Of a stretch of DNA of 43,844 nucleotides, positions 4 to 38,666 are shown in pieces. The translations under genes and the position numbers were made by a program. Numbering within the stretch: the stretch's first letter is position 1; each line of letters opens with the position of its first letter. The stretch comes from an uncultured Candidatus Saccharibacteria bacterium (GTDB taxonomy: Bacteria > Patescibacteriota > Minisyncoccia > Phycocordibacterales > UBA9973): positions 1 to 43,844 of the forward strand of contig CAZSEN010000001.1 in assembly GCA_964605995.1 (NCBI GenBank). The letters run 5' to 3'. Under the pieces are notes generated by a model. That model saw nothing but the letters and a program-made list of their open reading frames with translations, was not told the origin of the DNA and did no database searches.

Positions 4-162
4 ATGTCACAAGATCGATTATTCAAACTTGCGTGCGGAACCTGCAAAAGAGTCAACTACTGGAGCAGTAAAAACAAGAAACTCGTCACTAAAAAGATCG
101 AGCTGAAAAAGTTTTGCAAATGGTGTAAGGCGCAGAAGCCTCATAAAGAGGCGAAAAAGTAA
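4..162 (+). CDS. rpmG: 50S ribosomal protein L33
   Basis: ATG at 4 and TAA at 160-162 give 52 aa: MSQDRLFKLACGTCKRVNYWSSKNKKLVTKKIELKKFCKWCKAQKPHKEAKK. Its size, basic composition and CxxC...CxxC zinc-ribbon pattern are typical of L33. It is under 60 aa, so it is absent from the ORF track. Confidence 0.85.
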   Translation: MSQDRLFKLACGTCKRVNYWSSKNKKLVTKKIELKKFCKWCKAQKPHKEAKK

Positions 163-163
163 A
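114..163 (+). repeat. Direct repeat copy 1 (attL-like), the functional 3' end of rpmG
   Basis: ttgcaaatggtgTaaggcgcagaagcctcataaagaggcgaaAaaGtaaa matches 38617-38666 at 47/50 positions. Confidence 0.75.
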
Positions 164-176
164 TAGTAGTGCAGAA

Positions 177-207
177 ACATCCGGTGAAAGCCGGGTGTTT
201 TTGTTTT
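177..207 (+). terminator. Rho-independent terminator after rpmG
   Basis: Stem acatccgg/ccgggtgt with loop tgaaag, followed by ttttgtttt. Confidence 0.6.
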
Positions 208-254
208 CGTGCAGGTCCGGTGCAGTCGAATTAAAAGATTAATCAAATAATTCT

Positions 255-473
255 ATGCGAATATTCAACATCTGCACCCGCTCCGATTTCACTAGCAAGG
301 ACGGGGACGCCAAGCGTAAGTATTACAAATCCGGCGAGCTTCACGTCGATGAATCTACAGGTCGTATGTTCATGCGCCTGTACCAGAATCCCGCGATCCG
401 CTATTACTTCTTCGACACGGAAGAGAAACTGCCAGAGATCGATGCCGATACAAATACAGAATTGCCTCAGTAA
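255..473 (+). CDS. Hypothetical protein (72 aa)
   Basis: ORF track only; it lies in a co-directional gene array and I recognise no motif. Confidence 0.4.
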   Translation: MRIFNICTRSDFTSKDGDAKRKYYKSGELHVDESTGRMFMRLYQNPAIRYYFFDTEEKLPEIDADTNTELPQ

Positions 474-508
474 TTCTTTGGTATTCCTTTATCACTAAGT
501 TACATCAC

Positions 509-955
509 ATGATCAAAACCACACCCGTTCCGAACGCGGTATTTGAATATATTCCATCGCTCTCGGAAGCAGAATTGAAATTGTATCTCATCATCCTTCG
601 CCAAACCCTGGGCTGGAAGACCGGGACAAACAAGCAGCGCAAAGTCTATGACTGGATTTCCGCATCGCAATTTCACAGCAAGACCGGACTTTCGCGCCGT
701 GCGGTCGGCACTGCTGTCCGCTCACTCACGTATCGCAACCTCATACTCGTAGCCGACGAGCATGGCAAAGTCTTGCACACTCCCAATGACCGAAAAGGTA
801 AAACCCGACTCTACTACCGCATCGCTGTGGATAACACAGGGGATAAGGCTGAGGATAACGAATCAACCTGCGCAAATTTTTCTCCTGAGATAAGCAAAAT
901 GGTTTCAGCACTTGCGCAGAAAATGCTTTGTACAAAAGAAACTCCTACAAAATAA
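509..955 (+). CDS. Replication-organiser-like winged-helix protein (phage RepO N-terminal-like)
   Basis: VPNAVFEYIPSLSEAELKLYLIILRQTLGW...DWISASQFHSKTGLSRRAVGTAVRSL matches the pattern I associate with phage/plasmid replication protein O-type wHTH domains. Confidence 0.55.
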   Translation: MIKTTPVPNAVFEYIPSLSEAELKLYLIILRQTLGWKTGTNKQRKVYDWISASQFHSKTGLSRRAVGTAVRSLTYRNLILVADEHGKVLHTPNDRKGKTRLYYRIAVDNTGDKAEDNESTCANFSPEISKMVSALAQKMLCTKETPTK

Positions 956-1541
956 ATTATTACAAAAACTAATGCGCCCTTCACAGGGCAAAAAAATACG
1001 CATGCCCAAAGAACCAACAAGGATATGGATCACCATTGAGAATAAGGATGTCATGGATTTTATCAGCCTGCGATCTGTGACGCACGACATGATCGCTCAC
1101 TTCTGCAGATATAATCCGCAGCTTGTCAGTGAAGCGGTACAGGCAATTACCACAAGACAAATGGCAGAACAGCGATTGGCTATTGCTCCAATCACGGCTC
1201 TGCAGCCAACACCCAAGGATGAGCACACCATCGAGTGTTTACTCCTTGTCGACGGAGATACTCGTGACATCGAGCGATATATCAACTTTGCGAAAGCGCG
1301 ACGCCTCCAGCAAGAATGCCCGGAAATGGAACCGACTGCATACGCGGCCATGAAAAAATCTGCGTTCAACCTCATGCGCAAGAATAAAATCCGAAACTTC
1401 TCGGAAGAAGAATTACACCGTGTTTTCAAACACGCGAAAGAACAGCTTTTGTACACATCGATTGTCCGCTCTGCAATCGAGGATGGTTTCACTATTGACA
1501 GCCTGTATGAACAAGACCGTGATCGCGGTCTTGGCAGATAA
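912..1541 (+). CDS. Hypothetical protein
   Basis: Long ORF co-directional with its neighbours. The track start overlaps the previous gene, so in-frame ATGs at 972 or 1002 are more likely starts. Confidence 0.5.
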   Translation: MRRKCFVQKKLLQNKLLQKLMRPSQGKKIRMPKEPTRIWITIENKDVMDFISLRSVTHDMIAHFCRYNPQLVSEAVQAITTRQMAEQRLAIAPITALQPTPKDEHTIECLLLVDGDTRDIERYINFAKARRLQQECPEMEPTAYAAMKKSAFNLMRKNKIRNFSEEELHRVFKHAKEQLLYTSIVRSAIEDGFTIDSLYEQDRDRGLGR

Positions 1542-1546
1542 TCGCC

Positions 1547-2335
1547 ATGTCCACACCGATTAGCTATTATGGCGGAAAGCAACGGCTTGTTCCTAAAATA
1601 TTACCGTTAATTCCTGAACACACTTCCTATATCGAACCTTTCGCTGGAGGAGCGGCAATTTTGTTCGCAAAACCAAAATCGAAGGTGGAGGTAATCAATG
1701 ACACGAACAGCGAAGTAATTCTGTTTTACAAAGTAGTTAAAACAAGATTCGCTCAATTACAAAAGGAGATCCGCGCTACGTTGCACAGTCGAGAACTGCA
1801 CCGTAAAGCGAAATTCATTTACGAGCACCCCCTCCTCTTCAGCGACATTGAACGCGCCTGGGCGCTGTGGGTGAATTCGGTCATGAGTTATTCATCGATT
1901 CTCGGTAGCACATGGTCGTGCGGTTTTGACAGTGCAACAACTGAAAAGAAAGTGCATTCAAAAAAGTTGTCGTTCACGAAAGAATTGGCAGAGCGATTGG
2001 AACTTGTCCAGATCGAATCGCGTGACGCGCTGGAAGTGATTTTAACGCGTGATAATCCCACCGCCGTGTTTTACTGCGATCCGCCCTATGTAGGAACGTC
2101 CTGCGGGCATTATGGGGGTTATACGCGGGATGATTTTGAGAAACTGCTGAAAGTCTTGGCGAAAATCAAAGGGAAGTTCTTGCTTTCATCCTTTCCATCC
2201 GATTTATTGGAGAAATACTCAAGAAAGTATAAATGGAAAACGAAGATCATCGAAACCAATCTCTGCGTACAGGGAGCGAAGAAGAACGGAAGAAGAAAAA
2301 CAGAAGTGCTGACGGCAAATTATCCGATTAACTAA
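1547..2335 (+). CDS. DNA adenine methyltransferase, Dam/D12 class (orphan)
   Basis: N-terminal YYGGKQRLVPKILPLIPEHTSYIEPFAGGAAILF (AdoMet motif) and FYCDPPY (catalytic DPPY). No adjacent endonuclease gene. Confidence 0.9.
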   Translation: MSTPISYYGGKQRLVPKILPLIPEHTSYIEPFAGGAAILFAKPKSKVEVINDTNSEVILFYKVVKTRFAQLQKEIRATLHSRELHRKAKFIYEHPLLFSDIERAWALWVNSVMSYSSILGSTWSCGFDSATTEKKVHSKKLSFTKELAERLELVQIESRDALEVILTRDNPTAVFYCDPPYVGTSCGHYGGYTRDDFEKLLKVLAKIKGKFLLSSFPSDLLEKYSRKYKWKTKIIETNLCVQGAKKNGRRKTEVLTANYPIN

Positions 2336-2342
2336 TTCACCC

Positions 2343-2603
2343 ATGAAAAATAAAACACGAGATTGGACAGAACCCGAACACCTGCATCAAGGAGATTGGC
2401 AGGTACTCAAAGAAATCAAGCGACTACATGAGCTAGGAGAAATGCAGGAAGCTATGTCGGTGGCAAGAGAGACTGATACAATTGTGCGCGAAGAAATCCC
2501 GCCGCAGGTATGGCTCGACATTGGAGGAGCATTGACTCCGACTGGAATTGAGAAATTACGAAAAAGTAAGGAAGCCATGAAGGGCAAATCAAAAGAGAGA
2601 TAA
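2343..2603 (+). CDS. Hypothetical protein (86 aa)
   Basis: ORF track; sits 8 nt after the methyltransferase gene. Confidence 0.45.
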   Translation: MKNKTRDWTEPEHLHQGDWQVLKEIKRLHELGEMQEAMSVARETDTIVREEIPPQVWLDIGGALTPTGIEKLRKSKEAMKGKSKER

Positions 2604-2606
2604 TAC

Positions 2607-2640
2607 AAAAAGCCCGCACCAGTCCGGTGTCGGGCTTTGT
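2607..2640. terminator. Bidirectional terminator between convergent genes
   Basis: aaaa-agcccgcacc-agtcc-ggtgtcgggct-ttgt hairpin between 2343-2603 (+) and 2655-3230 (-). Confidence 0.55.
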
Positions 2641-2654
2641 AGCTGCGGGTCTTC

Positions 2655-3230
2655 TCAGTTCAGCCCGATTGCTTCTTCATCCTCAAACAAGTCGTCGTCA
2701 AATTCCATGACAATAATATTTTCAATCGGAATAAACGACTCTTCGCCGTCGTCATCTTCAAGATTCAAGAACCGCAGGGGTGAGGTTTCGTCGTCAAGGG
2801 CAAAGTGCGCTAGGCATCCAGCATCCAGATCATAATACAATGACGGATTTTCACTTTCTTCGTCATCCGATGCTCCGCCTTTGTGATATATGATCGCTTT
2901 CGGCAGATTGTCGGCAGGCTCATCGTCGTCTTCGATCTCCTCCGTTCCAACAAGCACCCCGAAATTATCACGATATGCCATTGCATCGCCTCGTATGCTG
3001 TCGGTCCGGTCGAAACAGAATGTGACGCGTGCGATCTCGTTCGTGCGTATCGCTACTTTGCGGTTCAATGAAGTCTCGAAACCCAGAAAGGGAAGCGTCT
3101 CGGCATTGAGCAAAAGCTCCATCAGGTTCTGCTTGTTCTCGGTATCGATAGCGTACAGAAGAACTTTACCCCTGAGCAACTCAATGCGAAGCGTATAGGT
3201 GACTCGTTTGTCGAATTCGATTTGTTTCAT
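2655..3230 (-). CDS. Highly acidic protein (possible DNA-mimic / anti-restriction protein)
   Basis: By my count the C-terminal ~97 residues contain 33 Asp/Glu against 3 Lys/Arg (EDDDEP, SDDEESE, LEDDDGEE, EFDDDLFEDEE). Confidence 0.6.
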   Translation of the reverse strand: MKQIEFDKRVTYTLRIELLRGKVLLYAIDTENKQNLMELLLNAETLPFLGFETSLNRKVAIRTNEIARVTFCFDRTDSIRGDAMAYRDNFGVLVGTEEIEDDDEPADNLPKAIIYHKGGASDDEESENPSLYYDLDAGCLAHFALDDETSPLRFLNLEDDDGEESFIPIENIIVMEFDDDLFEDEEAIGLN

Positions 3231-3394
3231 ACTCTATTTTTTAATATGGTTAGCTAATTTAATACAAAGAAAAACGCATTGAACCTGTGCCCTTGAAGTA
3301 TATCCGCAAGGGTCGAGAAATGCCAAGTGCAGAGACCCTTCTTTTTCTGACCGATTAAAAAAGCCCGACGTTTTAACATCAGGTCTTTGTGCGT

Positions 3395-3616
3395 TTACGT
3401 AACGGCGGAATCGACAATAACTTTTCTGATCTCGATTTTCCCTTGTACGCAAGTGATCTCCACTTCGTCATTGACATTGAAGCCATACCGCTCAAGATAC
3501 AATCCGCTCAACCTGATTACCGGATGAGTGATCGTTCGCGTTCTCCGGCGAGCATGAAAGACCTGGACTTTTTGGTGTGAATGACGAAATAAACTTACTC
3601 CTTTGAATGAATCCAT
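3395..3616 (-). CDS. SymE-family (AbrB/SpoVT-fold) toxin-like protein
   Basis: HPVIRLSGLYLERYGFNVNDEVEITCVQGKIEIRKV fits the SymE pattern (P.I.L.G.WL...GF..G..V.V....G.I.I). The start is taken at the ATG at 3616 (MDSFKG...); the track ORF extends to 3706. Confidence 0.6.
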   Translation of the reverse strand: MDSFKGVSLFRHSHQKVQVFHARRRTRTITHPVIRLSGLYLERYGFNVNDEVEITCVQGKIEIRKVIVDSAVT

Positions 3617-3692
3617 ACGTTTTGTTTTTGAATGAACTCGGAGGAGCATAGCTCTGTAGCAGAAAATTGGAAGGGGATAACCCTTCCTACTC

Positions 3693-4232
3693 TTATCTGT
3701 CATCAAAAGCTATCTGATCGATAATCGAATCAAGAAACTCCACTCGTTCTTTGTTCATGATCAACGGCTTCTTGTTGACAGCAGACTTCAAGCGACCATC
3801 ACGATCAAAGGCACGTTCGTATTTATCTACGAAGTGTTCAAAGATCACGCCGTGCCACGTGTCAAATATTCTCAGTAGCTTTCTCCTTCGCAGGGCTTTC
3901 AGAATATAGAATACATCGTTGTTATTTCCTCCCATGATCAAGGGTTCAGTAAGCAGATACTCGCTCGTCAGATGCTCCTTGAAATGTTTTTCGTCGTTCG
4001 CAATAATCAACCGATGCAATTGGCTGAAATTATAGAACGAGTGCAGCGATTTTTCCGAACCGATCCACTGGATGGTATTGCGTACACCAAGCGGCACAGG
4101 GCTGAAATCAAATTCGGAATTGCGGAGTCGTTTCTCGAATTCAGCGGGACTCTGCCTTTTTGTTTCTTCCAAAAGAAATGTGAGCAGAGCAAGGAGATTT
4201 TGCTGCGTAAATGGTGATTGAGACTTTTTCAT
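3693..4232 (-). CDS. Hypothetical protein (179 aa), immediately upstream of the SymE-like gene
   Basis: ORF track; no recognised motif. Confidence 0.5.
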   Translation of the reverse strand: MKKSQSPFTQQNLLALLTFLLEETKRQSPAEFEKRLRNSEFDFSPVPLGVRNTIQWIGSEKSLHSFYNFSQLHRLIIANDEKHFKEHLTSEYLLTEPLIMGGNNNDVFYILKALRRRKLLRIFDTWHGVIFEHFVDKYERAFDRDGRLKSAVNKKPLIMNKERVEFLDSIIDQIAFDDR

Positions 4233-4394
4233 GGTGCACAGTTATTAAGAGTGAGCGCCCATGAAACAAACGTCTATCAATAATCCTCAATACAAGTAAA
4301 AAACTTGCATTTTTACTAGCAAAATGTATTGTACATTAGCTAGTGAGATAGTCAGTCTATTTCATCAAGCCCAAAGGGGAGACCCTTTGCAGAG

Positions 4395-4424
4395 CCGATT
4401 GTCCCCCACGGACAGTCGGTTTTT
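4395..4424 (+). terminator. Terminator-like hairpin in a long non-coding region
   Basis: ccgattgtcc-cccac-ggacagtcgg followed by ttttt. It is preceded by a GAGA-tetraloop hairpin at 4372-4389. Confidence 0.45.
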
Positions 4425-5100
4425 GTATATATAGAGCCGAACATTTTTCGGCGACTCATTTACATTGTACCATACAATGACCAGCAGTCAAGTTGGTGCT
4501 TATTACCTATTATGGGAAGGGATTTACACCTTAAAGAATTCGAACGAGAAAGTTGTTCGAATTATGGCAAATAGCCATTCCCATTAACAATGCGGAGCTT
4601 TCTCCGCTCAAGTGCCATGGATGCTTTAAGGTGTGCTTTACAAAGATGACCCATTTCCTCAATAACCTCCAAGTGCTTGTTAGTCTTTTCATGTCAATGT
4701 TAATAAGTCGAGTATTCATTCGAACAAATCAAAAACTTTACGGCAAATAGATTCCAGCACGAGAATTGGATTCAATAAACGATACGCAGCATCGTTCATG
4801 GATTGCAATCCTCACTATTCAATATTTGCGGTATTTCAGAAATAGTTTTCCAAAATGGCTACTAGAAAGCCAAACTACTGCGCTGGGCGCGTTCAAGGAT
4901 TAGAAGCAATCCTTATTTCTGAAGTCTGTTGTAGAAACTACATTTTCCCGATATAGTGGAATGGATTTCCATTTTGCCTGCAAGGAGCCTCACTATCCGA
5001 ACGATTTATATTGGCAAAATCTACTAAGACAAATCTATTTCAATATTTTCAATTAAGCAATACTCATTCTAAATTCAGTTGACATTTAATATTTTTTGTA

Positions 5101-6273
5101 GTGCAGAATAAAGCAATATTGACTCTATACCCCACAGAGTTACCATGCCTCTCGGAAAAACAAAAACCGATAGACATGAAAAAGAAAACAAGTTCATTAA
5201 TTCCTGCCGCAGCGATCCCCGTTGCAGAAACCAAGCCATTCGGAAAGACCTTTACCATCAAAGGCGAATCACTTTCGCCCGGGCCGAACCTGCCTGATGA
5301 TGTGAAGGCAGTGGCAAAACCATTCAAGTCTCAAGCGGAACTGACCAAGCTGGTTCTCAGCAACCGCGCCATTCTCTTCGGAGAACAAAGCATCGGGCTT
5401 AATCCCAAAGTGGGTGATTCCTTATTACCCTGGGACGCGTTCCTGTTCGACTTCAGTGCTCCAATGAAACCCGAATGCTATGTCATCAAGACGGCAATCG
5501 AAAGCAAGGATTTCATGGGGTTTATTGCCTCGATGACCAAAGTGTTCGCATCCGTGCGCCACCTTGAAAATCGTAGAGAACTGGTAAATACCATTGGACG
5601 CACGATGAGCAAAGACAAGCGGCTGCAAAGCAACATTGAGAAGTACTACAGCAAAGGATACACAATTGCTGAACTTCTCGAACAGACGTTCCTCAGAAAA
5701 CCGCAGGTGTTATTGCTAACTGACGACATTCACTGGATTCCGCTTGGATTTGCTTCTGCGTATCCTGAAACGTGGGGCGATATGCTCAAGTGCATTCACT
5801 TGCAAAAGTACCAGATGGGCAAAACAATGATCCTTTCCATGAACCCTCCGTTTGCGGAGCTAAAGGAAAAGCCGAAGACAACGGTTCCTGCGAAGGAGCG
5901 GGTCATTCACACCGAAGCCGATCATCTGGCGAAAGCGTCCGACCTTTCCCGTACTATGTATGAGAAACAGAAGGCTGACATTCTCAAGATCGACAAGTCT
6001 GTTGTCTTCAACGCAAAGGGCAAGCATTACATCTCGGTCAAGAAGGGAAGCGGCAGGAATCTTGCGTTCTTCCACTTTCGCAAGAGCGGAATTTATCTCG
6101 TTGTGATGCTTGAAGAGAAGATTGTCCGGAAGATGGTGAAGAAGGCAGAGATCAAAAGCCTACCGGAGTCAGTGCAGAAATTCTGGAATGGTAAATCTAC
6201 CGGTCTCATTATTTCACACGCAGATCAGTTCAAGGAAATCTCGGAAGTTTTCAAAAAGCTGATCAAGCAGTAA
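5101..6273 (+). CDS. Hypothetical protein (C-terminal region resembles DUF5655-type domains)
   Basis: Long ORF with a GTG start in the track; the ATG at 5176 (MKKKTSS) is an alternative. The C-terminal KHYISVKKGSGRNLAFFHFRKSGIYLVV resembles DUF5655-like modules, from memory. Confidence 0.5.
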   Translation: MQNKAILTLYPTELPCLSEKQKPIDMKKKTSSLIPAAAIPVAETKPFGKTFTIKGESLSPGPNLPDDVKAVAKPFKSQAELTKLVLSNRAILFGEQSIGLNPKVGDSLLPWDAFLFDFSAPMKPECYVIKTAIESKDFMGFIASMTKVFASVRHLENRRELVNTIGRTMSKDKRLQSNIEKYYSKGYTIAELLEQTFLRKPQVLLLTDDIHWIPLGFASAYPETWGDMLKCIHLQKYQMGKTMILSMNPPFAELKEKPKTTVPAKERVIHTEADHLAKASDLSRTMYEKQKADILKIDKSVVFNAKGKHYISVKKGSGRNLAFFHFRKSGIYLVVMLEEKIVRKMVKKAEIKSLPESVQKFWNGKSTGLIISHADQFKEISEVFKKLIKQ

Positions 6274-6287
6274 GAGTTCCTTTTCAA

Positions 6288-6311
6288 AGAGTCGCGATGC
6301 GGCTCTTTTTT
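6288..6311 (+). terminator. Rho-independent terminator
   Basis: agagtcgc-gat-gcggctct followed by a T-run, 15 nt after the stop of 5101-6273. Confidence 0.55.
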
Positions 6312-6339
6312 GATGTGGTTGACGCAGTTCTGGACATGG

Positions 6340-6365
6340 GGTCAACTGCGACAACCATAACCGGA
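6340..6365 (+). repeat. Recurrent motif, copy A (ggtcaactgcgacaaccataaccgga)
   Basis: 23/26 identical to 17817-17842. Its 15-mer caactgcgacaacca recurs exactly at 19317-19331. Confidence 0.7.
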
Positions 6366-6400
6366 ATGGTGTTAAATAGCTTCGTAGAAAATTAAATACC

Positions 6401-6721
6401 ATGAACAACTTTCCAGAAGATTCCGAACGTAAAGCACAACGCATTTCCTCTGCTCGCCATTTTGACCTTAACAGTCTCCTGAAAGATCATTTCACGGGTG
6501 GCGGCGAACTCAACGAAGAACGAGGACGATTACTTGCGCTCTTTCTCTTTGAAAAACCGTATGTGCTTTCATATGAATACCGCAAGAAATCATCCGGGTA
6601 TAAAAAAGACAAGCCAGTTCTCGCTATGCTTGTTCGCGATGGACTGATTCGCCAAGTAGAGAAAACACGCAAGACAATCCTGTTTCAATACATCGGCGAA
6701 GTGCCGGAAGGGAAAGAATAA
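6401..6721 (+). CDS. Hypothetical protein (106 aa)
   Basis: ORF track. Its stop overlaps the next start (TAATG). Confidence 0.45.
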   Translation: MNNFPEDSERKAQRISSARHFDLNSLLKDHFTGGGELNEERGRLLALFLFEKPYVLSYEYRKKSSGYKKDKPVLAMLVRDGLIRQVEKTRKTILFQYIGEVPEGKE

Positions 6722-6993
6722 TGTTTGCAATGGAATTCATCCCGATCAGCATACTACGAGAGTTCTCCGGATACCGCGACCGGCGGTCCATCAAGCGATG
6801 GGCACTTTCGCTTGGAATCATCCTGCACAAAGTCGGAAAGAACTGGTGCGTTGTGCGAAGTGAACTTGATCAGGCTCTCTCAATAAAATACAGTCGCACC
6901 TCATTGTCGATTCCGCCGTCCAAACACAAAGCAACCAATTCCTGCGAACAAGCATTCCTAAACGACTTGCAAGAATTTCTTTCTGATTTATGA
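6721..6993 (+). CDS. Excisionase-like HTH protein (tentative)
   Basis: 90 aa, directly upstream of the integrase. ISILREFSGYRDRRSIKRWALSLGIILHKVGKNWCVVRSELDQAL resembles MerR/HTH_17 excisionases. Confidence 0.4.
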   Translation: MFAMEFIPISILREFSGYRDRRSIKRWALSLGIILHKVGKNWCVVRSELDQALSIKYSRTSLSIPPSKHKATNSCEQAFLNDLQEFLSDL

Positions 6994-7002
6994 TGGCTTG
7001 CC

Positions 7003-8445: not shown

Positions 8446-8540
8446 CCGTTTCCGCACAAACCGTCCGCACAAACTCTCGTCCATGTGCGGACGCAGCGCT
8501 TCTTACCTGACCATCCACGCTATCTTTATCCAACAAAAAA

Positions 8541-8576
8541 ACGGCGCGTTTTCCCTCTGAAAACGCGCCGTTTTTG
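8541..8576 (+). terminator. Terminator-like hairpin downstream of the integrase
   Basis: acggcgcgtttt-ccctctg-aaaacgcgccgt followed by tttt. Confidence 0.5.
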
Positions 8577-30291: not shown

Positions 30292-30304
30292 ATACGCAAG
30301 TGCC

Positions 30305-31483
30305 ATGAAAAACATCCTGCTACTGTTGCTCCCCGCCTTGGTTGCCTGGCACGATCCGGCTCCGGCACAGGGCATCCATTTTGAGCAAGATTCATTCTCC
30401 GTCTTGCTCGCCAAAGCTAAACGAGATCACAAAGCCGTTTTCATAGACTGCTACACCACCTGGTGCGGTCCCTGCAAGTGGATGGAGAAAAACATCTTTC
30501 CCAATGATACCGCTGGAAACTATTACAACTCTCATTTCATTTGCGCCTCTTTCGACATGGAGAAAGGGGAAGGGATTGACCTCAAGAAACGCTATGACGT
30601 GCGCTGTTATCCGACGTATCTCTACATAGACGAGGACGGCAACCTACTCCATCGTGTAAGCAGTACATGTTCTGTGCGGGAATTTGTTGCCCATGGAGAA
30701 ACGGCATTCTCACCGAACAATTACGCCACCCTCGATGCCGCATACCGGAAAGGGAATGCACCGCCGGAAATTCTCCGTGGGTACATCGGTGTTCGACAAG
30801 GCTCCTGTCTTCCGTCCGATTCCGTTCTCGCCACGTACACCGCTACACAACCCGAAAGTGCGTACATGGCGCAGGAGAATTGGAACGTGCTTCGTCTGTA
30901 CGTCCGAGACCCCGCCTGTACTTTGTTCCGTGCCTTGATAGCAAACACAAGTGCATATGAAGCGAAATACACTGCCGATTCAGTACAACAGATAATTCTC
31001 AAAATATACGGTGGTGCGCTCAGCTCCTGCCTGTACCCGAAACTTGATTCCGCACAGTATATGTCACTCCGTGCTGAAATCGTGGCACAGCAGCTTCCGT
31101 ATATGGAACAAGCAGTTTTAGGGAATGATATGGGCTTCTATCAGCAAGCAGGGCAGTGGAAACAATATGCCCATGCTTCCTTCACCTATCTGCAATTGTA
31201 TGCGGATTCCAATTGGTTAATCATGAACAACATTTGTTGGGCGATCTATGAGAACATTGACGATACGCTGATCCTCGATTCGGCACTCACATGGATACAG
31301 AAGTCTATTGCCATCTACGAGAGCTATTACAATACCGATACCTATGCTGCGCTCCTGTACAAACTCGGCAGAAAGGAAGACGCGCTGCGGGCATGTGAAC
31401 GGGCACTTATCCTTGCCGAGCAAGAAAAGATTGAAGCGCCGGGGACGAAGGAATTGCTTGTGAAGATCAAAGCGATGAAGTGA
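30305..31483 (+). CDS. Secreted thioredoxin-fold protein with helical C-terminal domain
   Basis: Signal peptide. FIDCYTTWCGPCKWMEKNIF contains the WCGPC active site. Confidence 0.8.
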   Translation: MKNILLLLLPALVAWHDPAPAQGIHFEQDSFSVLLAKAKRDHKAVFIDCYTTWCGPCKWMEKNIFPNDTAGNYYNSHFICASFDMEKGEGIDLKKRYDVRCYPTYLYIDEDGNLLHRVSSTCSVREFVAHGETAFSPNNYATLDAAYRKGNAPPEILRGYIGVRQGSCLPSDSVLATYTATQPESAYMAQENWNVLRLYVRDPACTLFRALIANTSAYEAKYTADSVQQIILKIYGGALSSCLYPKLDSAQYMSLRAEIVAQQLPYMEQAVLGNDMGFYQQAGQWKQYAHASFTYLQLYADSNWLIMNNICWAIYENIDDTLILDSALTWIQKSIAIYESYYNTDTYAALLYKLGRKEDALRACERALILAEQEKIEAPGTKELLVKIKAMK

Positions 31484-32029
31484 AGATTATCCGATGATGA
31501 ACGATTGTAATCCACTCTGAAGTTGTGATTACTTCCCCAACACATTTGAACCATCTACATTCGGAAGTCATCACATAGCCGGTTTTTCTGAACAACGCGC
31601 AACCATTCCTCTAACTACCCGTCATTAAATAAGACGACTATGTTAATTATGATCTACCGCATCTTTAACATTTGTTTGGTCTGGACAGGATAAAAAATAA
31701 CAACAGTTTGTTGTCAATATGAAATAAAATGAAATACATTGCGTTGTATTTTCGCTGATTCCCAAATAGGAATCTTGAGAATTGCATAAAGATCGTTACC
31801 CCCCAGCTACCCTCGGATAACGATTGTTTTTCGCGGCGCAGACGTGCGTTGCTGTTTTTCTGCTATATGTGGAGCGGTAAAAATTCGTGCTGGAGTTTTA
31901 TTGCCTCAAATAATTAAGCATTGACCATACCGCAGTTAGAGTGGATTGGTCACTGGCGAAGTGTTGTCTTCGCTGGAATAAGGATTAACAAAAACAACAT
32001 AAGTATCAACTCTAAAAACTCTTAAAAGT

Positions 32030-33814
32030 ATGCCTCCTATTACATCGTGTGCGACACAGGATCCATTTATTAAACTCGATCCTGCAGGACAAGCGTCCAT
32101 TCTCGATTACAGTCTTCCTGCTGAAACCGAATTCGAAGTCAAAGGATATATGGACATCAAGATTCCTAATCCTGATTGCTGGACTGATTTTGCTAAGGTA
32201 GTGCCTGACACAAATTTCTGGGAAACAACAAAAGACCTTTCAGCGAGTCAGGTGTTGGAATTAATCAACGAAGACATTCTTGGTAGTTCATCAACACCGA
32301 TGTTTCTCAATAATCGCGCACTGCAACGTCTTTCTTTGGTCAACACCGTGGGTGGTCCGCGTGCCGGCGCAGGAAAAGGTTCGGGTGGCGGACCTGGGGC
32401 CGGTGAAGGCAAAGGTCCAACAGTTGGTGGAACACGTCCTGGAAGTAATTCTCAAATTCAACAGGTAGCGATGGATGACGACAATACGCTTATTGCAGGT
32501 CTTTCTGGCAATCAAGTCGTGTCGCAAATTCTTAAGGGTCGCCGTCCATTAGTACGCCCGAACTTTTATGGGAAGCCGGTAGTTACGTTCATTCCAAAAC
32601 CTAAAGCCATAACTCCGACGCTCACACTCGTGTTCCATTACAAGGTATTGACGTTCGCAGGTAACTATGGTGCTGGCAGAACACTGAAGACGTTTAGTTT
32701 ACTTCCGGGTGAAAAAACCACCATTTCCATCACGACATTCAAGCATGATGAAGAAAGAAAGTCCCGGGCGGAAAGCATTTTGGATTCATTCACCGAAAGC
32801 AGTGCGCAGGAATTCCAGAACACTGTGGAAAATCAAAGCGGACGCGAAATGACGTCCGAGTCATCGGAAACAAAATCCAAAGAGTTGAGCGGTGGCGTTA
32901 ACCTTTCCTCTATTGGTATTCCAGTAGATATTTCTGGCGGTGTAAGCAATGCTTCGACGAGTTCCAATACCATGTCGGAACATGTCAGTTCCATCAGTTC
33001 GGCAATGGACACGCATACAAGCAATGCGTCATCCAACCGCGATGTAAACATCAACACAGAAAGCAGCTCAACTTCAATTAGCGAAATAACTGAAGCTACA
33101 GTTCGCCAGTTGCAAAATATCAATCAGAGCCGCGTGTTGAACTTCGTATATCGTCAGCTATTACAGGAATATATCACCATCACTTATCTCGATAATGTAT
33201 CCATTGTCTTCTCAAACGGATACCCGGAGAGCCGGATTGTGGCGAAACTCTCCAACATCAATGATCTTCTTGAAAAAGTTTTGAAAAACGATGCCGGTAC
33301 ACCATGTGACGGAACAATTGATGCGGTACGAAAAGGAATTTTCAAACAACTGTGTAACGTTTTCGACTACCAGGACAACAGTGTTCCATTCATGGAATGC
33401 GTGGAGCAAACACTCAATGATTGTTGTGGCGGAACCGATAAGCCAATCGTTAATAAGTTTGCCCGGAAAATTCCTACGCTGAGTCAGACTGCGGAAGGGA
33501 AGACAGTTCCCGGAATCATTCTTAATGTAAAAAAGCGCATCATGCGCACTGAATCAGTCGTATGCGACGCACTTCTTGGTCAGGGCGAAGCGCTGGATTG
33601 CTTCAACCAGAAGCTACAAGATATTTCTGTGGCCAAGGCTCAGCTTGAGAACGATGAGCAATATCAACGCTTGCAGATTATCACGAATATTCCGAGCGCA
33701 ATCGATCAGGCGGACAAATACAAGAAAGTATTCGGTCCGTGCTGTGAAGTACCGCAATCGTGCTGCGGTGGGGGTTGTGGATGCAATTGCAATCAGGACC
33801 CGACCATACCATAA
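32030..33814 (+). CDS. Large protein of unknown function with Gly-rich linker, Ser/Thr-rich region and Cys-packed C-terminal tail
   Basis: 594 aa with no signal peptide. GGPRAGAGKGSGGGPGAGEGKGPTVGG; the central FSLLPGEKTTISITTF...RVLNFVYRQLLQEY; last residues GPCCEVPQSCCGGGCGCNCNQDPTIP. Confidence 0.6.
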   Translation: MPPITSCATQDPFIKLDPAGQASILDYSLPAETEFEVKGYMDIKIPNPDCWTDFAKVVPDTNFWETTKDLSASQVLELINEDILGSSSTPMFLNNRALQRLSLVNTVGGPRAGAGKGSGGGPGAGEGKGPTVGGTRPGSNSQIQQVAMDDDNTLIAGLSGNQVVSQILKGRRPLVRPNFYGKPVVTFIPKPKAITPTLTLVFHYKVLTFAGNYGAGRTLKTFSLLPGEKTTISITTFKHDEERKSRAESILDSFTESSAQEFQNTVENQSGREMTSESSETKSKELSGGVNLSSIGIPVDISGGVSNASTSSNTMSEHVSSISSAMDTHTSNASSNRDVNINTESSSTSISEITEATVRQLQNINQSRVLNFVYRQLLQEYITITYLDNVSIVFSNGYPESRIVAKLSNINDLLEKVLKNDAGTPCDGTIDAVRKGIFKQLCNVFDYQDNSVPFMECVEQTLNDCCGGTDKPIVNKFARKIPTLSQTAEGKTVPGIILNVKKRIMRTESVVCDALLGQGEALDCFNQKLQDISVAKAQLENDEQYQRLQIITNIPSAIDQADKYKKVFGPCCEVPQSCCGGGCGCNCNQDPTIP

Positions 33815-33897
33815 GCATTTACTTCAATCAACCAATAAACTAACTTAGGTCATCGCCAGAACTCTGCTTGGCGATGACCTTTTAAAAGTATTCAGTT

Positions 33898-34734
33898 ATG
33901 GCATTCAAAAACCCGTGGGGAAAAGGTTCCGGCCAATTCAATCGTTGGATGAAAAATAATCCGTGGGAAGAAGGTGGGGAGTTCTTCAAAAATGCAATTA
34001 GCGAGGCACTTCCGGAATTTAATAATGCAGTGGTAGATATTCACCACATCACATTAACACAGAACTTCAAAAATTCACGAGTATATCTAGTCTATTCGAA
34101 ATTATTAGAGAATTCTGTATTCCAAAAATTTCTTGATCCGTTCAAAAAGAGTAATTTAATGTTTGACTATGAGGTGTTGGATATCGTATATGGCAAGTCT
34201 GCTGAAACAGATTCAGCCGATCCCGAGAATATTTCGATCACGATCAATGGGAATGCAAACCACTACGTAGAAGAAAACGATCCGGGTCCACCTGCGCGAA
34301 TATTCATTAAGAAACCTGCTGATATGTATGTCGCAAAAACCCTAATTCATGAGTGTATCCACGCATATATTACCGTTACTGGGAATAATTATCCCTGGAA
34401 GGGAGCTCCTGGGCCTGTGCAGGAACATAATTATATGGCTACAGAGTACCGCGATGATATCGTCAAAGGGCTCACCGAGTTCGCTAATGAAAATAATGTA
34501 GTAACGTCCGCCGAGGACATTGATGCAATTGCTTGGGCCGGCTTAGATAGTACCACAGCTTTTAGCCAGTTATCCGCGACGGAGCAGTTGGCGATTGATA
34601 CAAGATTCCGCCTTTTTTATTCGCAGACATACTGGTTTGAGTTCGGCTTGGTGCAACAGGATGACATGTCAAAATATGGCGGTAATTTGCCTACCAGCGA
34701 ACAAGCTGCTGCCCAAGCTCATATTCCAAGATGA
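33898..34734 (+). CDS. HExxH zincin-like enzyme with N-terminal FKNPWG tag (candidate effector 1)
   Basis: N-terminus MAFKNPWGKGSGQFNRWMKNNPWEEGG; LIHECIHAY metallopeptidase motif. Confidence 0.6.
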   Translation: MAFKNPWGKGSGQFNRWMKNNPWEEGGEFFKNAISEALPEFNNAVVDIHHITLTQNFKNSRVYLVYSKLLENSVFQKFLDPFKKSNLMFDYEVLDIVYGKSAETDSADPENISITINGNANHYVEENDPGPPARIFIKKPADMYVAKTLIHECIHAYITVTGNNYPWKGAPGPVQEHNYMATEYRDDIVKGLTEFANENNVVTSAEDIDAIAWAGLDSTTAFSQLSATEQLAIDTRFRLFYSQTYWFEFGLVQQDDMSKYGGNLPTSEQAAAQAHIPR

Positions 34735-35360
34735 TAAAAGCGGTTTTACCTTTCGTCGTTTTCGCTTTTGGTATCATCCACTGTTCTTCAGATGGCAGCC
34801 AAGTGGGAGACTCACGATCTGATGATTCCATACTTTCTAAGAATTGGCATTGGAAAGATTCTGTCCTCGCTAATATCCCAAATCGAACGGCATACTACTG
34901 CGATACCACAGCTCGTGGCGACATTGGAACGCTACCATGCGTTGAAGTATTAACGAGGACATTGAATAGAATCAACAATGAGTATTATGTACTAACCGAG
35001 CAATCAATAAGCTCACCAGATAAGATAACGTGCGATACTTTTTTCATCACATCAAACAATAGTTGGTATCAGTTGCACAATCATTCGTCCTATCTCTTCT
35101 TCTCGCGAGACGCCTTTCGTTCAAAGACGACAACAAGTCTTCGTCGAAATGGTTTTAACCCGACGAGTGTAGAAGATTGGATTCCAGATACACAATATGT
35201 TTCGCAGCACTATGGGGAACTCTTCATTTTTGATATTGAATTTCCTCTTAGCCGCGAGCCTAATAATGTTAAAGTTCATTTTTCTCCTAACTATGGAGCA
35301 GTGCACATTGTCAGCGAGATGTCTGTATTTTCAATCAATAGAATAGACTCGATCCGATAA
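34731..35360 (+). CDS. Lipoprotein (candidate immunity 1)
   Basis: ATGA overlap with the upstream stop. Signal/lipobox VVFAFGIIHCSS. Confidence 0.5.
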   Translation: MIKAVLPFVVFAFGIIHCSSDGSQVGDSRSDDSILSKNWHWKDSVLANIPNRTAYYCDTTARGDIGTLPCVEVLTRTLNRINNEYYVLTEQSISSPDKITCDTFFITSNNSWYQLHNHSSYLFFSRDAFRSKTTTSLRRNGFNPTSVEDWIPDTQYVSQHYGELFIFDIEFPLSREPNNVKVHFSPNYGAVHIVSEMSVFSINRIDSIR

Positions 35361-35393
35361 AAAATTAGTCTCATTTCTTAACCAAGATAAATA

Positions 35394-36278
35394 ATGAAAT
35401 TCAAAAATCCATGGGGGTCAGGTACTCCCTCCTTTGACAGATGGTCAAAAAATGACTGGAAAGATGGTGGCGGGTTATTTGAAAGACTCGAAAGCGCAGT
35501 TGAAGCAGAAGCTACTTCAACTCAAGTAGCTTTAGCATTTTGGGGTGGCGCCAAATTGACTTCACATAATAGCGCTTTTAAGTTTGCAGCGCAGAATACG
35601 CAGGCGTCCTACAAAAACTACTATACGAACAAGATCAACTTTGCCACGACAGGTGATTTTATAGTCGGCACAATCGAAGCTCAAACTACAGGGAGCATTG
35701 GTCGCATGGATATCGTAACGCATGCAAGTCCAACCGCATGTTACATGGTTAGGAATAAAGACACAAAGGCCAGCGGGGAACTTGCAGATATTCCCATTGA
35801 ACCAGTAGATATGAGGGAGTCAAATAATTTATGGGCCAGCAGAACTTCCAGAGCAGTGGAATCTGGATGGGATGTACCAACGGGTGATGAGCAAGCGACC
35901 ATTTATGACATCGAAACGGACCGATTCACTAATGATGCTGTAATCGAGTTTCATGGATGTAGAATAGCTGATACACCGGACGCGATGATCTACGACAATA
36001 TAGCCGAAAATTTATCTGAACATTTTTATTCTAATGATAAGACGCGGGTGGTTATATTAGGGCACGCCACCAAAGCAAATCCAAATATAAACGGAGAAAG
36101 TACTACTATAACCGCACAAGATTATCGACATGGAAAAAGAATTGCAGTTCATAATGGAAAAATATTATTCTCGACAACCCGCAAAAAGCACATTGGTCGC
36201 GACGAGATTTTAAAGTTTCTAGAAAAAAAAGAAAAGAATCCGGATACTTATGATGGAAGTAAAGAGACTCTTAAGTAA
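35394..36278 (+). CDS. Enzyme-like protein with N-terminal FKNPWG tag (candidate effector 2)
   Basis: N-terminus MKFKNPWGSGTPSFDRWSKNDWKDGGG; DIVTHASP and IEFHGCRIA form a possible His/Cys dyad. Confidence 0.55.
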   Translation: MKFKNPWGSGTPSFDRWSKNDWKDGGGLFERLESAVEAEATSTQVALAFWGGAKLTSHNSAFKFAAQNTQASYKNYYTNKINFATTGDFIVGTIEAQTTGSIGRMDIVTHASPTACYMVRNKDTKASGELADIPIEPVDMRESNNLWASRTSRAVESGWDVPTGDEQATIYDIETDRFTNDAVIEFHGCRIADTPDAMIYDNIAENLSEHFYSNDKTRVVILGHATKANPNINGESTTITAQDYRHGKRIAVHNGKILFSTTRKKHIGRDEILKFLEKKEKNPDTYDGSKETLK

Positions 36279-36693
36279 GCGGCCTAGAGTAATACTGCTT
36301 GTGCTCGAATGTTGTTTTTTTGTCGGTTGTGGAACTTCAAATTCTGATGTGTCATATGGAACGCAGGACACTGTGCGATTTCAGTATATCGACTGGGCAT
36401 GCGAGTGTGCCCAATGGGCAACATTAGAAGATATTCGTAAGTATGGCAACGACGTTAACACGGATTCATTGGACATAATGTCCGTATATCTTGAACCAGC
36501 AAATGATTCGGTTATTCTTCCTGATACAATAGGGTTCGCTAACGATGTTATTGAATTGTATGGGGATTATCTTCCGGAAAAGGGATTTCCCAGTAATAAA
36601 AGTCCGGGTGAGGGTGCGGAAAAGGCGCGGGTGTTTCGTTATTCAAACTTCCGGATTATTGAAAGCCATCATTACGAGACTATGAATTTCTAG
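36250..36693 (+). CDS. Lipoprotein (candidate immunity 2)
   Basis: Overlaps the upstream gene by 29 nt. Lipobox CCFFVGCGTS. Confidence 0.5.
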   Translation: MMEVKRLLSKRPRVILLVLECCFFVGCGTSNSDVSYGTQDTVRFQYIDWACECAQWATLEDIRKYGNDVNTDSLDIMSVYLEPANDSVILPDTIGFANDVIELYGDYLPEKGFPSNKSPGEGAEKARVFRYSNFRIIESHHYETMNF

Positions 36694-36717
36694 ATCGTAT
36701 AGAATCCGATGTGGTTA

Positions 36718-36972
36718 TTATTTATTCCCTGTATAGAAAAAATCCCTTAGTTCCTGCTCAGGAATAAACTGAATTAGTCGCTTGAAAATTGCATGCGACG
36801 TACCACGATCCAGCTTCTTATGCAACGGCACCGTCGTCACAAATGATTTCAGACCAGGCTTAAAGCGACCAAGATTCACATGGCTTCCTTTCCTCGATAT
36901 AACAAGTATGTCGTATCGTAAACAGAACCTAATCACTTCATTACCTGAAAGCGATCTCAGTTTGTTATGCAT
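36718..36972 (-). CDS. hicA: HicA-family mRNA interferase toxin
   Basis: LSGNEVIRFCLRYDILVISRKGSHVNLGR...TVPLHKKLDRGTSHAIFKRL matches the HicA pattern (GSH...P.H.....GT...I). Confidence 0.8.
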   Translation of the reverse strand: MHNKLRSLSGNEVIRFCLRYDILVISRKGSHVNLGRFKPGLKSFVTTVPLHKKLDRGTSHAIFKRLIQFIPEQELRDFFYTGNK

Positions 36973-37192
36973 GAGCCGAAAGCGGTAATTCGTAATTGAT
37001 CAGAATAGAAGGCGACTTGCCAATGGTCGGTTCATCAAACCCTGCATCTAAATGCAGTTCTGTAGCTTCTCGAATGTTCTTGAGCAAATCCTCGAGCGTC
37101 TTTGCTTGCGTAATGATTGCGTTGTCGAGCGCAGATGCAACGTAGTATCCATCCTGTCCCTCTTCAATTGAAAATTGAATGATGTTTCTCAT
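36965..37192 (-). CDS. hicB: HicB-family antitoxin (UPF0150-like)
   Basis: FSIEEGQDGYYVASALDNAIITQAKTLEDLLKNIREATELHL. Overlaps hicA by 8 nt. Confidence 0.75.
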   Translation of the reverse strand: MRNIIQFSIEEGQDGYYVASALDNAIITQAKTLEDLLKNIREATELHLDAGFDEPTIGKSPSILINYELPLSAHA

Positions 37193-37508
37193 GAGAGAAC
37201 TATACCATCATGTAGTGCGAAAGTCCATTTGAACTATCATATGTAGATCAAGAAAAACTCAAGAAATGAGCTTGACAAAAATTACTTTATCTGCTAGAGT
37301 AATGTTGGTCGTTTATAAAGTTTAATAATACCCACTGTCCCCGAAAGGGGATCAGCCGAAAGGCTCGATGGAACTTTGGGTTTGTATTATAGCGAAGTTT
37401 CGTGAGAGGATGTGAACGCACATCAATATAGAAACCATCGTTCTTTCTATAAAGAAAGGAACGACTAATGCAAACACCCACTGATTCCATCGGTGGGTGT
37501 TTGCATTT

Positions 37509-38474
37509 ATGAAGTTAAACGAAGCAATAACCAAATTCGAAGAATACTACAAACTGAGAGTGAAGGGTGGAACAATCCGGGGCTATGCACTTGACCTGCG
37601 CCAGCTCTGTCTTTTTCTGCGCAATCCGGCCATTGAGAACGTCCAGGACGAGGATATCATATCGTACTTGAACGGAATGCTCGAATGCGGATGGAATCAG
37701 AATGCACTTATGCCTAAAAGTATTGCATTTCGAAAGTTTTTCCAGTATCTGTCACTGAAAGGATATCGCGTTCTTAACTATCAACTCATCCCGATTATTA
37801 AGAAGCATTTCGTACTTCCGCACGTTGCGGAAAAATGGGAGTACGAGAAGATTATGGAATTCTTTTCTGTCGACTCAAAAGAAAAACATATTATTCGTAA
37901 CCGCGCGATAACGAGTCTCATTTATGATTCTGGTGCCCGTGTCGGCGAAATTGTTGCACTCAATATTGAAGACATTGATCTTGAAAATAAGAGGGCGGTG
38001 ATAAAAACCGAAAAATCTCGCGGCAAAGCCCCGGCGCGACAGATATTCTGGGAAGATGAGACAAACGAAAATCTTAAAAAGTGGTTAGCCGTCAGAGCAG
38101 AGATTTCCGGTTATGTCGATTTTCCAGAGCCGGATGCATTGTTCGTTGGTGTGAGATGCTGGCAGATCGGAAAGCGTTTGACCAATAGCGCCGTTGGTAT
38201 CTTCCTTCGTCACGCATCCCGAAAAATTGGCCTCAAGCGCGTTATGAATCCACACTCGTTGAGACACCTCAAAGGCAACGACATGGCAGAAATGAATACT
38301 AACGAGTTCGTAATCTCTCAGATCCTTGGACACTCTCAAGTTTCAAGTTCGAGAATCTATACACTGCTGAAATCTCCCGTTCTGGAAAAAGCGGCACGAC
38401 GCATTAATGAAAACCGACAGATGCTGCGTTCACCTTTCCAATTGACAACCGAATCGAAGGTGGCGAATGGATAG
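37509..38474 (+). CDS. Xer-like tyrosine recombinase / integrase
   Basis: N-terminal SAM-like domain (GYALDLRQLCLFL), DSGARVGEIVALNIEDID (Arg), NPHSLRHLKG (HxxR) and ILGHSQVSSSRIYT (His...Tyr). ATG 37509; the track gives GTG 37497. Confidence 0.85.
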   Translation: MKLNEAITKFEEYYKLRVKGGTIRGYALDLRQLCLFLRNPAIENVQDEDIISYLNGMLECGWNQNALMPKSIAFRKFFQYLSLKGYRVLNYQLIPIIKKHFVLPHVAEKWEYEKIMEFFSVDSKEKHIIRNRAITSLIYDSGARVGEIVALNIEDIDLENKRAVIKTEKSRGKAPARQIFWEDETNENLKKWLAVRAEISGYVDFPEPDALFVGVRCWQIGKRLTNSAVGIFLRHASRKIGLKRVMNPHSLRHLKGNDMAEMNTNEFVISQILGHSQVSSSRIYTLLKSPVLEKAARRINENRQMLRSPFQLTTESKVANG

Positions 38475-38616
38475 TGGTTGGTGTTTCTGCTCGTCATGTG
38501 ATACAATGACCTTGTACTGGATTCTTGACACATCGAACATAAACACTAGCGTTGAGAGATAGTCTCTCAATCCGCCGGTTATCTCAACTATCATTTACGC
38601 TCTGCACCAACAAGTA

Positions 38617-38666
38617 TTGCAAATGGTGCAAGGCGCAGAAGCCTCATAAAGAGGCGAAGAAATAAA
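38617..38666 (+). repeat. Direct repeat copy 2 (attR-like), an orphan rpmG 3' end
   Basis: ttgcaaatggtgCaaggcgcagaagcctcataaagaggcgaaGaaAtaaa. It still encodes ...CKWCKAQKPHKEAKK* but has no 5' part. Confidence 0.75.

Follow-up and report, generated by a model that had tools for sequence, protein, structure and literature searches.

A 38.5-kb integrative mobilizable element at the 3′ end of rpmG in a contig of probable Patescibacteria origin

Introduction

How can tens of kilobases of mobile DNA be inserted into the end of a ribosomal protein gene while the encoded protein stays exactly the same? The question is raised by contig CAZSEN010000001.1, a stretch of 43,844 nt (the whole of which is called the window below), in which rpmG, the gene for ribosomal protein L33, stands at the left end and a near-identical copy of its last codons lies 38.5 kb to the right, behind a gene for a tyrosine recombinase. 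An earlier note on this DNA, made from the letters alone, had proposed site-specific integration of an element that carries its own replacement for the 3′ end of rpmG. The computational analysis reported here indicates that integration of an integrative mobilizable element (IME) by its tyrosine recombinase, int1, at the 3′ end of rpmG is very probably the best explanation of the locus. The element appears to hold a second recombinase with a putative attachment site of its own.

Results

The direct repeat and the predicted hybrid rpmG gene

A repeat search of the window recovered a 58-nt direct repeat, 106–163 versus 38609–38666, with 53/58 identical positions (91 % identity) and a spacing of 38503 nt. 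The 50-nt pair described in the earlier note (114–163 and 38617–38666) lies within it and is, as claimed, identical at 47 of 50 positions. The identical core is 29 nt, located at 127–155 in the left copy and 38630–38658 in the right copy. By arithmetic, approximately 3e-9 identical pairs of 29 nt are expected by chance in 43.8 kb, and the runner-up direct repeats of the window are far weaker (at most 47 nt at 72 % identity); a chance origin of the repeat was thus rejected.

In the frame of rpmG, the three mismatches of the 50-nt span are synonymous: TGT versus TGC at position 126, and AAA-AAG versus AAG-AAA at positions 156 and 159. The encoded end is thus CKWCKAQKPHKEAKK and a stop in either copy, and the observation that three third-position differences preserve L33 exactly was borne out. 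Upstream of position 114 the mimicry of L33 decays, the right copy having N-K-Y in place of the K-K-F of rpmG. The open frame of the right copy begins after a stop at 38543 and its part before the repeat is not L33-like, which identifies this copy as a fragment of an L33 gene. On the alignments given below, the rpmG gene of the window is a predicted hybrid, in which the 5′ part is chromosomal and the segment from the crossover (within 127–155) to the stop is element-derived.

A hairpin behind each copy had also been noted, and both were recovered by folding (171–204 and 38664–38693; energies in Table 1), each with a U-rich tract after it. The left hairpin was not flagged by a simple terminator consensus scan, probably as some of the T-run is base-paired within the stem; the label ‘terminator’ for 171–204 is given by fold energy and position. 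The recombinase gene that had been placed near the right copy, int1, is separated at its end by 134 nt from the 58-nt repeat and by 142 nt from the 50-nt span.

The attP form in related elements

Protein searches with int1 returned 72 hits at E≤1e-3, of which approximately 48 are homologs at 35–89 % identity, and proteins named XerC or XerD reach at most 28 %. Scans of the loci with an 8-sequence integrase alignment covered genomes, metagenomes and IMG/VR. An identity of int1 as an XerC/XerD dimer resolvase was rejected, both on this low identity and on location, as int1 lies at the edge of a mobile element beside an attachment (att) site of its own.

Contigs L047 and L157 are two assemblies of one related element, with an int1 of 81 % identity and approximately 80 % DNA identity to the window. 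There, the equivalent of window 36715–38666 is joined to that of 106–2612 and onward through a single copy of the repeat, in the order window 36715–38629 (P arm), 29-nt core, window 156–2612 (P′ arm). When aligned, the L047 site corresponds to the left arm of attR, the 29-nt core and the right arm of attL. The same one-copy attP arrangement is found in L002 (int1 78 % identical) and L004 (57 %). Comparison of these sites with the window supports the view that the two window junctions are the exact recombinant products predicted from an attP known in related elements, and this one-copy form in L047/L157, L002 and L004 supports the integration with a replacement rpmG 3′ end proposed in the earlier note.

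The letters that distinguish the arms are few. The attP type has C at 126 and AAAAAG-TAA-ATAG from 154–159 on, and the chromosome type has T at 126 and GAAGAAA-TAA-AAGAAAACCCC. The partition of the mismatches into B-type and P-type arms fits a crossover within 127–155. As the right arm of attL is of the attP type, the present last codons of rpmG, its stop and the hairpin at 171–204 would be element-supplied. A homologous hairpin is present in the attP of L047, L002 and L004. The attP-borne L33 peptides vary slightly among relatives (e.g. KGHKETKK in L002), each with a hairpin of its own.

The pairing of int1 with an L33 gene end extends beyond the close relatives. In 13 of the 13 loci with an int1 homolog of at least 44 % identity and enough downstream sequence, the last being L128, a C-terminal L33 fragment lies 147–869 nt behind the integrase on the same strand. 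Behind int1 homologs of 42 % identity or less, no L33 fragment was found under the motif used; other downstream sequence is conserved among them. In L003 (a metagenome-assembled genome, or MAG, of Saccharibacteria), L049, L050, L054, L056 and L058 the L33 fragment is followed by tRNA-Trp, and in L049, L056 and L058 housekeeping genes come next (e.g. def, PCMT, uppS or a sigma factor). These six are independently assembled attR-type junctions in contigs of the candidate phyla radiation (CPR).

One of the six, L056, has two L33 3′ fragments in tandem (11461–11508 and 12035–12082) between one integrase and tRNA-Trp, which resembles a scar left by a second element that has since been lost (accretion).

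Chromosomal flank and host

The named MiaA matches among the best 120 all belong to Patescibacteria, Nomurabacteria or Minisyncoccia, at 60–65 % identity to the protein encoded in the right flank. The order RelA-ParB-MiaA recurs in L046, a CPR-like contig, beside dprA, a pilin gene, topA and serS, and the tetranucleotide signature of the flank correlates with that of L046 (r 0.81). From these 5.2 kb of flank, the host is probably a bacterium of the Patescibacteria (CPR). An exact match to RelA was found in one 2.3-kb Logan contig (SRR12113420) and nowhere else. For the L33 protein and for the integrase read from its GTG start, the contig index contained no exact match.

The contig starts 3 nt before the ATG of rpmG, which is not where the att repeat would fork an assembly at common k-mer sizes. 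Speculatively, the break could stem from a conserved gene upstream.

Gene content and class of the element

Scans with Pfam, PHROGs and PADLOC together covered essentially all open reading frames (ORFs) of the window of at least 60 aa; the PHROGs screen comprised 20 ORFs, namely the left-end module and the unannotated cargo. Features are collected in Table 1.

Table 1. Features of the 43,844-nt window (positions as in contig CAZSEN010000001.1)
Feature	Position (nt)	Strand	Evidence or remark
rpmG, ribosomal protein L33, 52 aa (predicted hybrid)	4–162	+	Pfam Ribosomal_L33 E 4e-14; attL/attP/attR alignment
attL (B-O-P′), left repeat copy	106–163	+	Repeat search, att alignment; core and probable crossover region 127–155
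Body of integrated element	164–38608		Repeat spacing, gene content; unit including one repeat copy 38503 bp
Terminator-like hairpin, predicted element-supplied, now behind rpmG	171–204	+	RNAfold −23.6 kcal/mol, z −5.5
orf72	255–473	+	Conserved backbone start
Replication-initiator-O-like (RepO-like) gene	509–955	+	PHROG 678 E 1e-16; backbone start with orf72
Dam-type N6-adenine DNA methyltransferase, backbone	1547–2335	+	Pfam MethyltransfD12 E 1e-29
int2, second tyrosine recombinase, 480 aa, conserved backbone	7003–8445	+	Pfam Phage_integrase E 4e-8; PHROG 1 integrase E 6e-19
Putative intact attP2	8445–8745	−	tRNA-Leu(UAA) 3′ fragment 8583–8644 flanked by TCCGCAC repeats
Low-GC defence cargo	8749–17727		GC 0.37–0.39; PADLOC, Pfam, inverted repeat
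Type IIG restriction-modification enzyme	9486–12119	−	PADLOC REase_MTase_IIG E 1e-111
Insertion sequence (IS) element, 26-nt terminal inverted repeats, 92 % complementary	12505–13531		Pfam DDE_Tnp_4, inverted-repeat search
NsnA/B/C defence system, complete	14094–17727		PADLOC NsnA E 1e-112; NsnB 4e-103; NsnC 3e-66
Mobilization module	22123–24923	+	Coupling protein, 189-aa ORF, relaxase
VirD4-type coupling protein	22123–23556	+	Pfam T4SS-DNA_transf (PF02534) E 1e-51
MobA/VirD2-type relaxase	24114–24923	+	Pfam Relaxase PF03432 E 8e-14
MvdD-like ATP-grasp gene	24938–25939	−	Pfam/PHROGs/PADLOC scans
Helix-turn-helix (HTH) regulator, repressor-like	27945–28241	−	Pfam/PHROGs/PADLOC scans
Unannotated secreted or lipoprotein-like proteins	29056–36693		Without family assignment
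HicA-like toxin gene and adjacent small gene	36718–37192	−	Pfam HicA_toxin E 4e-5, below curated cutoff; colinear with L047
int1, tyrosine recombinase paired with rpmG att site	37509–38474	+	Phage_integrase and Phage_int_SAM_1 E 3.5e-27
attR (P-O-B′), displaced original rpmG 3′ end	38609–38666	+	Repeat search, frame check, att alignment; core 38630–38658
Original chromosomal rpmG terminator-like hairpin	38664–38693	+	RNAfold −18.7 kcal/mol, z −4.8
Chromosomal flank	38667–43844		Hypothetical gene, tRNA-Trp(−), miaA(−), tRNA-Leu(CAA)(−), parB, short relA/spoT(−)

By predicted content the element is plasmid-like and is an IME, and neither an integrative and conjugative element (ICE) nor a prophage, because it encodes a coupling protein and a relaxase, and lacks VirB4 and phage structural genes. 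It is bounded by att sites at a specific target and has a matching recombinase (int1, the 58-nt repeat and the attP of its relatives), it carries a relaxase (PF03432) together with a type IV coupling protein (T4CP, PF02534), and it has no complete mating pore of its own. No match to VirB4, AAA_10, VirB6 or other mating-pore families was obtained with Pfam in essentially all ORFs of at least 60 aa, although divergent pore proteins could escape a sequence search; lacking a self-encoded conjugation apparatus with its VirB4-type ATPase, the element was rejected as an ICE. Capsid, terminase, portal, tail and lysis families were likewise absent from the Pfam scan of all ORFs and from the 20 ORFs screened with PHROGs, among which the RepO-like protein and integrase were the only matches. 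The coupling protein is approximately 27 % identical to plasmid T4CPs, and the relaxase has just two plasmid matches, both weak.

The backbone start (255–955) has homologs at 71–91 % identity that always lie directly behind an integrase–att module. The int2 protein is 36–37 % identical to its positional counterparts in L157 and L002, and the HicA-like pair beside int1 also occurs in L047/L157.

A perfect 20-nt inverted repeat (27750–27769 and 27782–27801) is located inside a stretch of approximately 240 nt within 27640–27900, which is 86 % identical to L047 105–385; the surrounding cargo is not conserved. The stem letters of L047 differ from those of 27750–27801 yet are self-complementary, i.e. 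the changes are compensatory. The inverted repeat is a candidate only for an origin of transfer (oriT), a replication origin or a structured RNA.

Several side observations concern the cargo. The DDE_Tnp_4 transposase of the IS element is split into two ORFs (12606–13100 and 13121–13501), through a frameshift or decay. In the region 24938–26707 (minus strand), two ORFs that are small or unannotated (178 aa and 83 aa) come after the MvdD-like ATP-grasp gene, and the group may be a small peptide-modification cassette. The genes at 33898–34734 and 35394–36278 are paralogs with similar N-termini (M.FKNPWG.G...F.RW.KN), and each is followed by a lipoprotein-like ORF (34731–35360 and 36250–36693, respectively); none of the four has a family match. 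At the map position of these genes (33898–36693), Bacteroidota-resident relatives carry cargo secreted by the type IX secretion system (T9SS).

The second integrase and a putative second attachment site

Next to int2 lies a 62-nt fragment (8583–8644, minus strand) that is colinear with residues 23–85 of a tRNA-Leu in L157. With a synthetic 5′ part grafted onto it, the fragment is recognised by ARAGORN as tRNA-Leu(taa); ungrafted, 8583–8644 received no call by ARAGORN or Rfam. Five of the nine TCCGCAC motifs of the window cluster around the fragment on both sides, with copies at 8451, 8464 and 8485 on one side and 8718 and 8733 on the other. In L157, three copies are present, on the element side only. 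The arrangement has the makeup of a tRNA-targeting module, with a tyrosine recombinase beside a tRNA 3′ fragment and arm-type repeats on both sides, and suggests that attP2 is a putative intact, unused attachment site of int2.

Relatives in Bacteroidota-like contigs

Homologs of the RepO-like protein at 71–91 % identity are found on long contigs of 51–200 kb. The gene order on these contigs is cargo, integrase, att fragment, orf72, RepO and Dam. Directly upstream of the integrase, the cargo contains Por_Secre_tail, CHU_C and PorP/SprF domains, which are hallmarks of the T9SS of Bacteroidota. The T9SS genes of L156 have homologs of the window cargo at 29704–31480 on one side and the integrase on the other, and are thus cargo of the element. 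Beyond the backbone, FabF/ACP genes, a COX3-like gene, a Mur ligase gene, DnaG, PRPP synthetase and L25 are encoded. Two of the long contigs belong to MAGs labelled Bacteroidia or Bacteroidetes; the assignment of the relatives to Bacteroidota is by gene content and these MAG labels. The attP-type junctions are located inside such long contigs, with T9SS cargo and with FabF/ACP, COX3-like or Mur ligase genes in the flanks. The L33 end in the rpmG-type attP is of the short, CxxC type, which to our knowledge is not the L33 of Bacteroidota.

In several of these contigs the backbone ends at a tRNA gene: tRNA-Leu(CAA) in L157, where it lies 1.5 kb beyond the int2 homolog, tRNA-Met in L154 and L161, and tRNA-Val in L004. 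A search of 10 kb upstream in L157, L154, L161 and L004 revealed no direct repeat of these tRNA 3′ ends. An element of the L004 type (on an 88.7-kb Bacteroidota-like contig) and the closest relative of the window host by MiaA (82 % identity) occur together in both ERZ27297709 and SRR14366756 (L045, L163).

In other relatives of the backbone, this position is taken by different integrases (28–40 % identical to int1) with gene-end-like fragments that differ as well, and the integrase–att module is therefore exchangeable. In L154 and L156 (9360–9760 and 9340–9760, respectively) a gene-end-like fragment without gene assignment, ending in LVEHVIKAGELI and a stop, occupies the att position; a short gene-end-like ORF ending in EMGYTYTLVEHVIKAGELI and a stop is followed by TAAATAG and a hairpin. 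These two loci suggest the same spare-3′-end design aimed at a different gene. A further candidate, L162, in which a 52-aa gene precedes orf72, was considered as a second attL and rejected, since L162 is no more than a part of L161 and its ORF does not encode L33.

Discussion

Probable integration at rpmG and its alternatives

The most probable course of events is that the element entered by int1-catalysed recombination between its attP and the last ~50 nt of rpmG, with strand exchange presumably within the 29-bp identical core at 127–155. The attP would bring synonymous codons for the L33 C-terminus, a stop and its own terminator, so that L33 would be unchanged and still terminated after integration. 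The original 3′ end and terminator of rpmG would be displaced 38.5 kb downstream, beside int1. Excision and circularisation of the window copy may follow, and transfer may take place through a type IV secretion system (T4SS) of the host or of another element; the T4SS would act in trans because the element is without VirB4.

Several points weigh against this reading. An empty site was sought with a degenerate attB pattern, which gave 0 matches in JGI metagenomes when attL and attR were excluded, and through the MiaA relatives (82 % and 64 % identity), where synteny falls short of rpmG. Neither an excisionase nor an oriT was identified in the element. The unique left flank is only 105 nt. Lastly, the closest relatives lie in Bacteroidota-like and not in CPR contigs, an unusual host context that increases the prior probability of an assembly fault.

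Among the alternatives, the window might hold two or more unrelated elements in tandem, with a small int2 element (164–8650) beside a larger int1 element. Two integrases are present, the tRNA-like fragment at 8583–8644 divides a block of 45 % GC from one of 38 % GC, and tandem accretion at rpmG is documented in streptococci (PMC5357655). Against this, int1, att, orf72, RepO and Dam through to int2 form one contiguous conserved block in L157, L002 and L047, so that window 164–8445 and 36715–38616 are one unit, and the window contains neither a third rpmG repeat nor a second copy of the tRNA fragment. Tandem accretion is thus unlikely; the low-GC defence block may still be a later insertion.

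The contig could also be a chimera, in which shared L33-like sequence led to the linking of a CPR chromosome with an element that has its attP intact and is free or resident in Bacteroidota; integration in this genome would then not be real. The short left flank speaks for it, as do the relatives in Bacteroidota-like contigs (int1 57–81 %, RepO 71–91 %), whose rpmG-type attP is intact, and the tetranucleotide composition of the element, which is nearer to Bacteroidota-like contigs (r 0.76–0.84) than to CPR contigs (r 0.33–0.67). Yet the exact identity between attB and attP is 29 nt, below the final k of common metagenome assemblers, and the k-mers that span base 126 (B) and bases 156–159 (P′) would have to come from real molecules. 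A single contig crosses the repeat twice in the order expected of integration, unlike a collapsed repeat node; the attR-type junction recurs in the six independently assembled CPR contigs; and the second att site is closed in the window, as for a circle opened at the first. A chimeric origin accordingly appears very unlikely.

A prophage using rpmG as its attB is scarcely credible: the RepO-like initiator, the Dam methylase, the integrases and the repressor-like HTH gene would suit one, and two int1 homologs (46–47 % identity) are filed in IMG/VR, but virion, packaging and lysis families are missing under the scans given above, a T4CP and a relaxase are carried instead, and the IMG/VR relatives hold restriction-modification genes, a helicase gene and polyvalent-protein genes and no structural genes.

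Possible use of two attachment sites

The presence of two integrase–att pairs raises the possibility that, beyond int1-type integration at rpmG, a single circular map could be opened at either of two sites: at att1, into rpmG, through int1 in Patescibacteria, and at att2, into a tRNA gene, through int2 in Bacteroidota. Opening at att2 would leave the rpmG-type attP intact, and opening at att1 would leave attP2 intact. This two-site shuttle is suggested by the intact att1-type junctions in Bacteroidota-like contigs, the tRNA ends of the backbone, the sidedness of the TCCGCAC motifs, the composition of the element and the samples in which both partners occur. It is put forward tentatively, as an idea that may well prove wrong. 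Bacteroidota are among the most frequent non-CPR gene-sharing partners of Patescibacteria in a published survey (PMC12455944).

Comparison with known elements

The earlier note had considered a ribosomal protein gene unfamiliar as an att site. This does not hold, as integration at the 3′ end of rpmG has been published for tyrosine integrases of streptococcal ICEs and IMEs, which also target rpsI, rplL and rpmE (PMC4701971, PMC5357655). On streptococcal rpmG, two unrelated integrase families have converged, in two architectures, one of them with the integrase opposite rpmG, and tandem accretion at streptococcal ribosomal protein sites has been reported (PMC4701971, PMC5357655). The window element resembles the ‘rpmG opposite’ type (Tyr_6; Ambroset et al. 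2016, Coluzzi et al. 2017) in having its integrase at the far end from rpmG. As in the streptococcal rpmG elements, a tyrosine integrase is paired with the L33 gene at its 3′ end, and the gene stays intact owing to a direct repeat; as in streptococcal IMEs, a PF03432-class relaxase and a VirD4-type coupling protein are carried without a mating pore. It differs from the streptococcal elements in its probable host, which belongs to Patescibacteria and not to Bacillota, in having a second integrase with its own tRNA-type att site, and from typical IMEs in its larger size (38.5 kb). There were no streptococcal proteins among the 72 int1 matches at E≤1e-3, in which XerD proteins of at most 28 % identity come nearest outside the family, and the comparison with Tyr_6 and Tyr_10 is by description only.

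Integration without inactivation is also achieved by phage 21 and e14 in icd of Escherichia coli, where a substitute 3′ end is supplied to an essential gene. Unlike the window element, these are phage or defective-prophage elements, the gene is another one, and the substitute end changes a few residues. The pairing of int2 with a ~60-nt 3′ fragment of tRNA-Leu follows the classic attP design of tRNA-targeting islands; here, in contrast to such islands, the tRNA-type site is unoccupied and the element is integrated through its other site. Tripartite ICEs of Mesorhizobium are assembled into one element by the joint action of more than one integrase/att pair. The window element shares the plurality of pairs, but its pairs look like alternative routes.

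The strategy of integration at rpmG is thus already known and textbook for integrative elements, and its occurrence here is confirmatory. Novelty seems to lie in three aspects: the host, which is probably of the Patescibacteria; an integrase family without streptococcal matches in the one protein search made; and a second integrase with an apparently intact tRNA-Leu-type attP, while close relatives lie in Bacteroidota contigs that end at tRNA genes.

Implications for gene transfer in Patescibacteria

According to one survey, Patescibacteria have few relaxases (109 in 3,035 assemblies), often encoded beside a t4cp gene; a chromosomal VirB4-type T4SS is near-ubiquitous, and its role in conjugation has been doubted on account of the rarity of relaxases (PMC12102498). 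A second survey reported genomic islands in Patescibacteria and genes shared with Bacteroidota (PMC12455944). Neither survey (PMC12102498, PMC12455944) appears to describe a delimited element with att sites, an assigned integrase and a pair of relaxase and coupling protein; the word ‘integrase’ is absent from PMC12455944. An IME without a pore fits a setting of rare relaxases and near-universal T4SS.

If the two-site shuttle were true, the family would be a defined DNA vehicle between ultra-small episymbionts and a candidate host phylum, probably mobilised through the resident T4SS. The element family offers an attP, a predicted attB, int1, a relaxase and a candidate oriT with which conjugation in the CPR could be tested, and the same sequences could be used to test whether the exchange partner includes Bacteroidota.

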